Shown here in pieces: positions 34,372-60,611 of a stretch of DNA of 64,000 nucleotides (position 1 is the first letter of the stretch; every line of letters begins with the position of its first letter). The stretch comes from a virus. The stretch spans positions 1 to 64,000 of the IMG/VR virus record IMGVR_UViG_3300035698_007281; one strand, given 5' to 3'. The notes under the pieces are model-generated. The model made no database searches and had not been told where the DNA came from. It saw nothing but the letters and a program-made list of their open reading frames with translations. Both the position numbers and the translations under genes were made by a program.

Positions 34372-35760
34372 TTAGTACGGCATCTCCTCATCGTCGTCCT
34401 TGCCCTTGCCCCGGCCGTTGTCGTCCTTGGCCCGGCGTCCCGCCCGACGGCGGCGAATCTCGGCGACCTCGTCGTCCTCGTCGTCTTTGGTATCGTCCCG
34501 GCTCCGGCGGCGGGGTTCGTCGTCCTTCTTGGGATCGTCGTCCGAATCCCGGCGGCTCCGGCGTCTCGGCTCCTCGGCGGGAGGATCATCGTCGGGATCC
34601 CGACGGCTCCGGCGGCGGGGTTCTTCCTTGGGGTCATCGCCATCATCCCGGTCCCGTTTGGGATTGGTGTTATCAAAGTGGTCGCCCACCTCGTCCTTGA
34701 CACCCTCCCGGCGGCGGGGTTCCTCGGCCGGAGGATCATCGTCGTCCCGGCTTCGGGACCGGCTCCGGCGGCGTGTGTCGTCGCCCTCGTCGGCCTCGTC
34801 CCGGCCCCGGCGGCTGGACCGGCTACGGCGGCGGGGTTCTTCCTCGTCGTCTCGGTTCCGGCGGCGTGTGTCGTCGCCCTCGTCGTCATCGTCGGCCTCG
34901 GTCATCGTACCCATCGCGGCCCTGATGGTGTCGTAGTCCTCGAACTGGAGGACATCGTAGTAATGAGGGACGGCGTCCATCCACTCATCCGGGACCGGGT
35001 CTCTGTCGGTCAGCCCGTAGCCGGAGTACTCGATCTCGTGCCACTCCTTCCCCTCCCGCTCGAACTCGAAGATATACCCATCATCGGGGTCCAGAGGATC
35101 TTTGCCCTTGCGGTCACCCGAAGGTTTGATGAACTTCACCAGACCCTTGTCGTGGATCGTGGGGGCCATCAGGAAGACTTTGACGCCCTCGTCCTCGGTG
35201 TCCCTGTCGGTGGCGTCAACGACCCAGGTCAGGAACTTGACGGGTCCCGGTTCGTTCCATTTGCCGGAGGAAGCGCGGTACTTGCGCAACTCCTGCCACA
35301 TCTGGTTCCGGACCTTCTCCCCCACCTTGTCCTTCTTCTTCTTGTAGACCGACAGGAGTTTCTCGTGGTGTTCGCACATCGGACACCGGCCGTCCTCGAT
35401 CTTCGGCGGAATGGGGAGTTGCTGCTTGGCCAGATACGCCCGCATCTCCTTCGGGCATAGGAAGGCGTCTCCGTTGCCTCCCACATCACGGTGGCCGTAG
35501 AGGCCCAGGCCGACGAGGTTGGGATCATCGGGATGCGGTTCCAGGACGTGGATGGAATGGAGTTTGGCGGCCCCGTCCTTCCCGGATGCGGTTTGGTACA
35601 TTGTGATCCCGGCCTTGGTCAACTCGGCTTCCGATTTCAGGAAACCGGCGCGGTCGTCGAACGTCCCTTTGTCGTCTCGGTTCCGTGTGACATTCTCGGC
35701 GCGTTCTCCTGCGCCTCGGCCTCGGCTTCGTCTGCTGTTTCGGTCTAGTGCCATCTTCAT
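34372..35760 (-). CDS. Single-stranded DNA-binding protein (gp32-like) with a long charged repeat tail
   Basis: H...LCP...CP.C, DP.DG..F...R.G.....Y; tail of EEPRRR/DD repeats ending EEMPY. Confidence 0.7.
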   Translation of the reverse strand: MKMALDRNSRRSRGRGAGERAENVTRNRDDKGTFDDRAGFLKSEAELTKAGITMYQTASGKDGAAKLHSIHVLEPHPDDPNLVGLGLYGHRDVGGNGDAFLCPKEMRAYLAKQQLPIPPKIEDGRCPMCEHHEKLLSVYKKKKDKVGEKVRNQMWQELRKYRASSGKWNEPGPVKFLTWVVDATDRDTEDEGVKVFLMAPTIHDKGLVKFIKPSGDRKGKDPLDPDDGYIFEFEREGKEWHEIEYSGYGLTDRDPVPDEWMDAVPHYYDVLQFEDYDTIRAAMGTMTEADDDDEGDDTRRRNRDDEEEPRRRSRSSRRGRDEADEGDDTRRRSRSRSRDDDDPPAEEPRRREGVKDEVGDHFDNTNPKRDRDDGDDPKEEPRRRSRRDPDDDPPAEEPRRRSRRDSDDDPKKDDEPRRRSRDDTKDDEDDEVAEIRRRRAGRRAKDDNGRGKGKDDDEEMPY

Positions 35761-41372: not shown

Positions 41373-41426
41373 GTCTGTCCCTTTCGTCTCGTGGTTACGT
41401 GTTCGGTTGTTTACTTCACTGAGAGT

Positions 41427-41455
41427 ATTATCGGCGAGGGTGGTTCGTTTGTCAA
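41427..41455 (-). promoter_or_regulatory. Repeated early sigma70 promoter
   Basis: TTGACA-17-GATAAT; about 58 nt match the 17.97-18.02 kb copy with 2 mismatches. Confidence 0.85.
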
Positions 41456-41481
41456 GGATAAAATCAGAAAAACTTTCCGGC

Positions 41482-41745
41482 CTAGAACTCCAAGGCCTGG
41501 AGGCCCAGTTCGTCGGCCGACATCCCGACGGTATCGAGTTGCGGCTTCCCGCCCCAGTACACGTCCGACATCTGGCCACGGCCCTGGGCCATCCGGACGA
41601 TCACGTCGGTGACCTGGACGGTGGGATCCTCGTTGAACTTCGAGGAGGACAGGTAACGGATCAAGTCGTCGTGATTCTCGCGGTTGGCTTCCAACATCTC
41701 AGTGAGGCGGACGACCTGGGCTTCCAGTTTCTTGATGTGGTTCAT
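41482..41745 (-). CDS. Early hypothetical protein downstream of the structured RNA
   Basis: MNHIKKLEAQ...YLSSSKF..D.TVQV.DV. Confidence 0.6.
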   Translation of the reverse strand: MNHIKKLEAQVVRLTEMLEANRENHDDLIRYLSSSKFNEDPTVQVTDVIVRMAQGRGQMSDVYWGGKPQLDTVGMSADELGLQALEF

Positions 41746-41774
41746 GGTGAGGCCTTTCCGGTTGGGGTTGGTTT

Positions 41775-42064
41775 CGGTTGTCATCGACGAGCGGTGATAT
41801 TGTCCCGTGTCGGGTCTTGTCCGGCGGGCCGCCTGGGCGGTTCTTATCACTATCCGTTTGGACCGGCGCGACGTTGTTATCGCGTCACCTTCGCCGATGG
41901 TTTGTGACACACCGCCGGGCGTCTCTCTGAGACTACCTCTGCCTTTCGCGGACAGAACTCCGGATGGGTGAGAACCTGGGTCTTCTCGGCTGTCTACTGG
42001 CCTTGCCCTTGCGGTCACCTTCCCGGCGGTGTGTCGTATTCGGTTGTCAATACGTCATTCATCT
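41775..42064 (-). ncRNA. Candidate structured ncRNA or long 5' leader with two multibranch domains
   Basis: Starts just after the promoter at 42071-42099; perfect 14-bp inverted repeat 41906-41919/42022-42035; second closing stem 41782-41797/41885-41899; several internal hairpins. Confidence 0.65.
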
Positions 42065-42070
42065 ACAAAC

Positions 42071-42099
42071 ATTATCGGCCAAGGTGGATCATTTGTCAA
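42071..42099 (-). promoter_or_regulatory. Early sigma70 promoter driving the structured RNA
   Basis: TTGACA-17-GATAAT. Confidence 0.85.
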
Positions 42100-42127
42100 G
42101 AGGAAAATAAGAAAAACTTCGGCCCAT

Positions 42128-42161
42128 AGAAAAGGCCCCCCGGTTGGCGGCCGGAAGGCCT
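42128..42161 (-). terminator. Rho-independent terminator
   Basis: GGCCTTCCGG-loop-CCGGGGGGCC followed by TTTTCT. Confidence 0.65.
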
Positions 42162-42181
42162 GGGGCGCTGAGTTGGTTTTC

Positions 42182-42571
42182 TCAATCGTCCGAGATCTCC
42201 AGGGTGAGTTGGAGTTCGTCCAGGAGGGCCTGGGTCAGGGGGTCGAGGAACGCCCCGTTGAGATCTTCGGCGGCCATGGCGGACTCCAAACCATCGTTGG
42301 ACGGGACCCCGTTGTATCGGTAGTGGACGCCCTCGGGGAGATCCTGTTCCCCGTCGGTCGGCCAGTCGTCGAAGTCGGTTGGGTCGGCGTCGTGCATGAT
42401 CTCGTCAATCACGCACTCGTAGGCCTCCTCCCAGGTCGAGGCCCGGACGATCCCCAGGACCCCCAGGGGTTCCCGGTAGATCCACAGGGGGCCGAACCCC
42501 GCGTCCCAGATCCGGATGGGGGAACCGAAGCGCGTCTTCGCTCCGCTGAGACTCTGGTCGTCGGCGATCAC
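42182..42571 (-). CDS. Early hypothetical protein (acidic)
   Basis: 129 aa; GAGGAGG RBS; GTGA coupling. Confidence 0.6.
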   Translation of the reverse strand: MIADDQSLSGAKTRFGSPIRIWDAGFGPLWIYREPLGVLGIVRASTWEEAYECVIDEIMHDADPTDFDDWPTDGEQDLPEGVHYRYNGVPSNDGLESAMAAEDLNGAFLDPLTQALLDELQLTLEISDD

Positions 42572-43599: not shown

Positions 43600-43731
43600 T
43601 TAGGCGGCCTTGTGGGCCTTGTACCAGATCGCGGCGAGTTCTCGGATGCCCGTGCATCCGGGAAGATTCGTGCTTTGGTTCTCTCGGAGAAACTTGTAGA
43701 GGTCGGCTTCGTGCCTTGCCTTGCTCGTCAT
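43600..43731 (-). CDS. 43-aa early peptide (not in the ORF track)
   Basis: MTSKARHEADLYKFLRENQ...; first ORF after a promoter. Confidence 0.4.
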   Translation of the reverse strand: MTSKARHEADLYKFLRENQSTNLPGCTGIRELAAIWYKAHKAA

Positions 43732-43761
43732 CGCTTTGTTCTGTTCGTTGCTCATGTATGT

Positions 43762-43790
43762 ATAATACGCTCGCCACAAACAAAAGTCAA
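43762..43790 (-). promoter_or_regulatory. Early sigma70 promoter (ACATGAGCA leader)
   Basis: TTGACT-17-TATTAT. Confidence 0.75.
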
Positions 43791-60582: not shown

Positions 60583-60611
60583 TTGACATCCTGAGGGCCT
60601 TGGCCGATAAT
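60583..60611 (+). promoter_or_regulatory. Early-type sigma70 promoter between terL and portal
   Basis: TTGACA-17-GATAAT with ACATGAGCA leader. Confidence 0.85.

Follow-up and report, generated by a model that had tools for sequence, protein, structure and literature searches.

A two-domain, stem-rich non-coding insert in an early-gene leader of an uncultured tailed phage

The 5′ leader of a small early gene in an uncultured tailed phage carries ~266 additional bases that are predicted to fold into two closed domains, here named D1 and D2. Sequence comparison shows this ~320-nt non-coding leader to consist of a standard leader of ~50 nt plus ~266 inserted non-coding bases that appear specific to the lineage; neighboring early leaders measure ~45 nt. 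The insert is real and unclassified, and its standing as a functional structured RNA is read from a single sequence. We tentatively view it as a lineage-specific RNA module that arose by cassette recombination and may be processed or protective, a reading that could well be wrong, and below we weigh it against the alternatives.

The DNA analyzed here (the window) comprises bases 1–64,000 of IMG/VR record IMGVR_UViG_3300035698_007281, which totals 93,511 bp, has a GC content of ~60% and contains direct terminal repeats. Judged by its sequence, the record is an uncultured tailed phage distant from any cultured one. It encodes the tailed-phage markers portal, terminase, tape-measure, family A polymerase, gp32-like SSB, clamp-loader and helicase, and best identities to GenBank phages were ≤26% for the portal and ≤24% for the polymerase. 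Prophage relatives were not found in GTDB. Four portal-based relatives (G001, G002, G003 and G004) were 41–48% identical; G001 is syntenic with the phage in the structural and replication modules, and all four lack the region corresponding to bases 36.6–48 kb, the promoters and the leader.

The leader stands behind a consensus promoter, TTGACA-17-GATAAT, that the initial annotation had noted and that is indeed present at 42099–42071 on the minus strand. Nine such sites occur in the 64,000-nt window against 0.09 expected by chance, and the whole genome has 12–13 of the same type, arranged in three arrays, with terminator–promoter pairs at 42.1, 43.8 and 85.1 kb. Because a terminator (42161–42133) lies directly upstream, the promoter at 42099–42071 begins its own transcription unit, for which we infer a start at ~42064. 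The distance from −10 box to start codon is 41–57 nt in nine cassettes, all with a good ribosome-binding site, in agreement with the earlier remark that the other cassettes have short leaders. Three cassettes are longer, with 325 nt ahead of the 41745 gene, 198 nt at genome 87 kb and 173 nt at 43790. The last of these served as a control: its 173-nt gap holds a small ORF and has a folding z score of −1.2 against shuffles. This ORF (window 43602–43756, minus strand) starts with an ATG 6 nt past the −10 box of the 43790 promoter, runs for 51 codons with a positive coding score and looks like a leaderless small gene; a plus-strand promoter at 60583 shares the ACATGAGCA start with it.

Repeats of a leader motif delimit the insert (Table 1). 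The core 9-mer ACAACCGAA occurs ten times in the genome, eight of them within early leaders, and only the D1–D2 leader contains it twice (42047 and 41781), on either side of D1–D2. As the 11-mer TGACAACCGAA, the two copies in this leader are 266 nt apart, and the linker between the domains is a degenerate third copy. An 8-mer core variant flanks both D1–D2 and E2, a sister element in the leader at 87 kb, and the sequence at the 5′ start of the D1–D2 leader is common only to that sister leader. From core copy 2 onward, the leader can be aligned, through the ribosome-binding site and the first codons, with the 19190 cassette, whose leader is of the ordinary kind. The sequence initially labeled boxA-like turned out to be a variant of this leader core, common to most early cassettes (eight leaders). 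Directly abutting repeats, each pair with one mismatch, flank E2 (10 nt) and D2 (6 nt); D1 alone has none. Reading the 3′ end of D2 as a decayed promoter gave no significant result. Two short reading frames were also seen. An ATG 8 nt past the −10 box, placed at the transcript’s 5′ end or close to it, opens a 15-codon ORF (window 42062–42015, minus strand) that stops within the first GGUGA of D1, and an ATG at the equivalent position of the 87-kb sister leader opens a 58-codon ORF spanning all of E2; the two are alike in their first eight codons only, a likeness at the nucleotide level.

Table 1 Features of the D1–D2 leader and its surroundings, in window coordinates
Feature	Position	Strand	Description
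Intrinsic terminator of upstream gene	42133..42161	−	11-bp stem followed by T-run
T-rich UP-like stretch	42101..42120	−	Conserved ahead of early promoters (cassette alignment)
Consensus sigma-70-type early promoter	42071..42099	−	TTGACA-17-GATAAT
5′ leader segment	42036..42064	−	Core copy 1 (TGACAACCGAA, 42049–42039) within a 5-bp hairpin
D1	41906..42035	−	130 nt; perfect 14-bp closing stem, predicted four-way junction, three arms
Linker ACAAAC	41900..41905	−	Unpaired probability 1.00; resembles leader core
D2	41782..41899	−	118 nt; 9-bp and 5-bp GGUGA/UCACC stems around four short hairpins
Leader core copy 2 (TGACAACCGAA)	41773..41783	−	Direct repeat of copy 1, 266 nt downstream
Standard 3′ leader	41746..41772	−	Ribosome-binding site GGAAAGG (41759–41753), predicted mostly unpaired
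Small early gene (P0001), 87 aa	41482..41745	−	Start ATG 41745; widespread phage family, MN[YH]IK start

Codon usage separates the leader from the gene that follows. A log-odds score trained on 46 long genes fell below zero in each of the leader’s six frames (−0.10 to −0.52 per codon; GC3 0.57–0.66) and reached +0.84 with GC3 0.87 in the ORF from ATG 41745, similar to neighboring genes. The original description of a two-domain, stem-rich leader that is non-coding and transcribed is supported. A HMMER scan of 1.84 billion representative proteins recovered 43 remote homologues of the 87-aa product, counted as clusters in a 50%-identity library (P0005–P0046). They measure 60–110 aa, are 35–55% identical over the first ~55 residues and share a family core around SSKF..DPTVQV.DV. 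Nearly all have MN[YH]IK as their first residues, beginning where ATG 41745 falls in the alignment. The open frame of 91 codons upstream is, therefore, no N-terminal extension, as the negative codon scores also indicate; the initial annotation had named translation as the N-terminus of the 41482 ORF as grounds for refutation, and this was not borne out. These comparisons fix the start of the downstream gene at ATG 41745 and define a widespread family of small phage proteins. The protein had no Pfam match, and its sole PHROG match was marginal (phrog_38641, function unassigned, E 0.006).

Seven IMG/VR contigs encode homologues of the 87-aa protein. The gene is translationally coupled to the preceding gene in four of them and follows a short intergenic gap in another; one (G005) has its own promoter and a 33-nt leader before the homologue, and one has a repeat-rich leader of ~190 nt ending in three copies of CGGACAAC. 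As D1–D2 is absent from all seven, the insert is no regulator conserved across the family. Two side observations concern the same gene neighborhoods: the ~190-nt leader at L154:1330–1500, in an unrelated phage contig of 50% GC, is full of GCTAGC-containing tandem repeats and lacks a Shine–Dalgarno sequence, and an ACAAC-type motif recurs ahead of the family’s genes.

The perfect 14-bp stem attributed to D1 is present (42035–42022 / 41919–41906) and gives the domain its span of 130 nt. Perfect repeats of at least 14 bp with a spacer of 60–300 nt occur only twice in the genome, at D1 and at E2 (genome 86913–87042), against 0.17 in shuffled genomes; both span exactly 130 nt, and they lie in the sole two leaders that share the variant 5′ start. 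The closing pairs proposed for D2 were likewise recovered (41899–41891 / 41790–41782, continued by GGUGA/UCACC past a one-base bulge), and the closing helices have pair probabilities of 0.96–0.99 in the ensemble, with the 9-bp repeat of D2 taken by itself falling within chance expectation. Probabilities of being unpaired in the predicted ensemble were 0.61 for the ribosome-binding site and 0.70 for the AUG; in this model, two self-contained domains would leave the ribosome-binding site free. Inside the domains, the earlier hairpin assignments stood only in part. All exist as sequence, but the fold skips GAGAA/TTCTC and pairs CGGG with a different CCCG, and the CCGCC-CA-GGCGG hairpin, whose 2-nt loop is impossible, is replaced by one of 4 bp with a 4-nt loop. 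The shared domain start was confirmed in that GAAGGTGAC follows both closing stems, but a 9-mer repeat within 320 nt is not significant alone.

Folding energies were compared with several backgrounds. Against dinucleotide shuffles, z scores were −4.2 for the whole leader, −4.35 for D1 and −3.45 for D2; GC-corrected values against 4,344 native 130-nt windows of the genome were −1.9 and −1.2 for D1 and D2. An RNALfold z-score scan of both strands placed D1 at rank 92 and D2 at rank 131 of 420 non-redundant local structures, and ~90 other loci in the genome, mostly coding sequence, match the D1 score. Because this GC-rich genome folds well everywhere, folding energy alone proves nothing for D1 or D2. 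RNALfold gave z scores of −4.15 (D1) and −3.9 (D2) on the transcribed strand and one weaker match over D1 on the opposite strand (−3.1). The minimum free energy is about equal on both strands because almost all pairs are Watson–Crick, and G–U pairs, considered as evidence for the transcribed strand, were uninformative. D1 resembles neither D2 nor E2. The leader showed no enrichment of Shine–Dalgarno-like AAGG or CsrA-type GGA motifs, and its base-pairing targets elsewhere in the phage genome were at chance level. Within the gp32-like SSB gene, window 35102–35118 (minus strand) repeats exactly, and in the same sense, 17 nt at the start of the first D1 arm (blastn-short E 0.001), which is either chance or a small copied segment.

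The sister element E2 (L002:6914–7043, minus strand, 130 nt) lies outside the 64,000-nt window and is the more compelling RNA of this genome. It is predicted to form a cloverleaf set on a 24-bp stem without mismatches; its canonical T arm is 14/15 identical to the T arms of the phage’s own tRNA-Met and tRNA-Glu, and its local-structure z score of −8.6 is the best in the genome. One copy of the leader motif lies on each side of E2, and the gene downstream of it encodes 268 aa with a SprT-like Pfam match that is weak and below threshold. An acceptor stem set on a T arm with a UUCRANY-type loop was found only in E2 and not in D1–D2. A global alignment of D2 with E2 scored better than 1,499 of 1,500 native genome windows, and the likeness was invisible to nhmmer and strict local alignment; homology between the two is only suggested by their sequences. 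The equivalent position of E2 within its leader hints at a device shared with D1–D2.

Other structured RNAs were noted along the way. A 1.2-kb non-coding RNA cluster on the plus strand (L002:2200–3400; genome 82.2–83.4 kb), closed off by a strong terminator, holds a tmRNA-like RNA, a tRNA-Leu-like RNA, tRNA-Met, an extra stand-alone T arm and tRNA-Glu, the last enclosed in a 259-nt domain with a 13-bp closing stem. The tmRNA-like member (L002:2364–2502; genome 82363–82501, plus strand) is a 139-nt Rfam tmRNA match scoring 47.7 bits against a gathering score of 47. It has a tRNA-like end including G3:U70, with ~70 nt in place of the model’s 304-nt middle, and ARAGORN made no call; it may be a minimal phage tmRNA-like RNA. 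The distant relative G001 has a 109-nt leader element (L005:10195–10303, minus strand) with perfect 14-bp arms followed by a T-run; a 9-nt stretch that includes the ribosome-binding site occurs once on each side of the element. The likeness of the element’s stem to that of D1 was judged coincidental.

Searches for known families found none, in line with the initial remark that the family was not recognized. Rfam 15 at gathering thresholds gave no match anywhere in the window; at E values up to 10, the interval 41400–42200 produced only three chance matches of 12–14 bits and no aptamer. ARAGORN detected no tRNA or tmRNA in the window, and the Rfam tRNA, tmRNA and Y-RNA-like models did not match D1–D2. 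The whole phage genome encodes no reverse transcriptase (RVT_1), as a retron would call for, and the phage has neither a Ro/TROVE gene, which Y RNA or YrlA would lead one to expect, nor an RNase III gene of its own. Nucleotide homologues were sought in several collections, which may lack very near relatives. Within the phage, nhmmer returned only self-matches for D1, D2 and E2; 20–25-mers searched against GTDB genomes gave chance matches or none; and no D1–D2 homologue emerged from blastn against GenBank phages, from IMG/VR motif scans or from a protein scan of JGI metagenomes with the neighboring DUF932 gene. Scanning metagenomes for the promoter–leader pattern yielded 118 loci, none related by blastn or tblastx.

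The early-region cassettes fit a PeSL-like context: the region is hypervariable, and its small ORFans are flanked by repeated strong sigma-70 promoters and terminator stem-loops. In T4-type phages, PeSL cassettes comprise many strong sigma-70 promoters, often placed after a stem-loop terminator, that bracket small genes in the hypervariable early region, and recombination between the repeats moves the cargo (Arbiol et al. 2010, PMC2839356; PMC4122927). The present phage is similar in having 12–13 cassettes in three arrays and an early region without counterpart in its nearest relatives. It differs in having non-coding cargo placed after the promoter and ahead of the ribosome-binding site, with a duplicated 11-nt leader motif rather than whole cassettes on either side; the phage is, moreover, unrelated to T4, and neither mini-circles nor variants were seen.

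Our tentatively preferred reading builds on this arrangement. The insert would have arrived by recombination between repeated promoter–leader cassettes at the leader motif and would act as RNA rather than as a ligand switch. Its closing helices might serve as RNase III-type double-strand processing sites or shield the transcript. In both cases they would determine the 5′ end of the mature mRNA and could free D1 and D2 early in infection as small, stable RNAs. In the RNase III-processed early leaders of coliphages, such as the T7 R sites and the lambda N leader, the sites are single irregular hairpins of ~60 nt whose cleavage defines the ends of mRNAs and influences their stability or translation. 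D1–D2 resembles them as double-stranded RNA elements in early transcripts just behind strong promoters, but its stems close multi-branch domains of 118–130 nt. RNase III processing sites comprise about two turns of regular double-stranded RNA; the helices measure 14 bp in D1, 9+5 bp in D2 and 24 bp in E2, and the D1 stem is short for a classical site. The processed or protected module is consistent with the non-coding character, separate transcription unit, insertion anatomy, rare closing stems and well-defined predicted fold of the leader, and with the slight RNALfold preference for the transcribed strand. The canonical T arm of E2, a D2–E2 alignment exceeding 99.9% of native windows and the control cassette at 43790, whose 173-nt gap reached just z −1.2, point the same way. 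Several results weaken it: folding energy is ordinary for this genome, pairing gives little strand signal given the similar minimum free energies, the D2–E2 likeness is fragile, RNA homologues were absent from the GenBank phages, IMG/VR, JGI metagenomes and GTDB genomes searched, and homologues of the downstream gene in seven contigs have no such leader.

Nearly as likely as a processed or protected module, and still doubtful, is a neutral or selfish stretch of palindromic DNA that serves no dedicated function as RNA. Template switching or cassette recombination could have produced the palindrome, or the insert could be MITE-like; it would be tolerated as a self-folding sequence that leaves the ribosome-binding site unblocked. 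Bacterial MITEs and palindromic repeats such as Correia and ERIC are 100–150 bp long, have terminal inverted and flanking direct repeats, often reside in transcribed leaders and fold as RNA. D1, D2 and E2 share the size and the terminal inverted repeats (arms of 14, 9 and 24 bp, respectively), and direct repeats border D1–D2, D2 alone, E2 and the 109-nt element of G001. Perfect Watson–Crick stems, equal folding on both strands, unexceptional folding energy and the lack of conservation in the collections searched also speak for this reading. Unlike MITEs, however, D1, D2 and E2 form no multi-copy family and have no common terminal sequence or repeat, with no further copy in the phage and none in GTDB genomes by 20–25-mers. 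The repeats also do not abut the stems of D1 when that domain is taken alone, the canonical T arm of E2 is strand-specific, and the inserts are confined to transcribed leaders behind the strongest promoters of a compact genome.

We consider it unlikely that D1–D2, alone or with E2, provides trans-acting early RNAs (decoys, anti-defense RNAs or mimics of host RNA) that are merely co-transcribed with the gene. The consensus early promoter, the self-contained domains, the tRNA mimicry of E2 and the phage’s 1.2-kb cluster of tRNA-like and tmRNA-like RNAs are compatible with such a role, but neither a target nor a partner protein or complementary site emerged, genome matches stayed at chance level, D1–D2 has no tRNA-like arm and no conservation was detected in the collections searched. 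The comparison with tRNA-like and YrlA modules is divided in the same manner: E2 shares the long terminal stem closing a cloverleaf and the canonical T arm, whereas D1–D2 has no T arm or other tRNA feature and the phage has no Ro/TROVE gene. An equally speculative extension would unite D1–D2 and E2 in a new class of leader-borne phage RNAs that are mobile between early promoter cassettes through core-motif recombination, are excised from the earliest transcripts of the infection and act in trans on the host; decoys for RNA-targeting defenses or tRNA-handling enzymes would be examples.

A cis-acting modifier of elongation, either put-like or a nut/boxA-type antiterminator (the initial annotation listed an antiterminator), would act on RNA polymerase leaving this promoter. 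It is improbable because short leaders also contain the supposed boxA, which is the generic leader core, and because no strong terminator was found for ~5 kb downstream of the D1–D2 leader. Two structured domains right behind an early promoter, a second structured leader in another early array and a terminator downstream of the E2 transcription unit would suit antitermination; put RNAs are ~70 nt, and the element, at ~250 nt, is far above that size. The tandem riboswitch also suggested at the outset fares worse still and is rejected on its lack of an expression platform and its very stable P1. Like tandem (glycine) riboswitches, the leader has two adjacent closed domains, each with a P1-like stem around a multi-helix junction. 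No aptamer for a metabolite matched in Rfam even at E values up to 10, however, neither closing stem is followed by a U-tract, the ribosome-binding site and start codon are predicted to be largely unpaired, a perfect 14-bp P1 is too stable to switch, and the downstream gene encodes a small ORFan-like early protein. Finally, translation of the leader from GTG 42018 as an N-terminal extension of the 41482 ORF is refuted on present evidence. Upstream of ATG 41745 the frame stays open for 91 codons, a length estimated to arise by chance in ~5% of cases per frame at this GC content. Its codon score of −0.16 and GC3 of 0.60 contrast with +0.84 and 0.87 for the ORF itself, the GTG lacks a preceding ribosome-binding site, and nearly all homologues start at the residue aligned with the later ATG.

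The two leading readings carry different meanings for phage biology. If the modules work as RNA, early-promoter cassettes of phages would carry non-coding cargo besides small genes, and D1–D2 would represent an unclassified structured RNA of the first minutes of infection in a phage lineage without cultured relatives. If the insert is neutral, it would offer a clear case of 5′ leader growth by insertion via repeated leader motifs.
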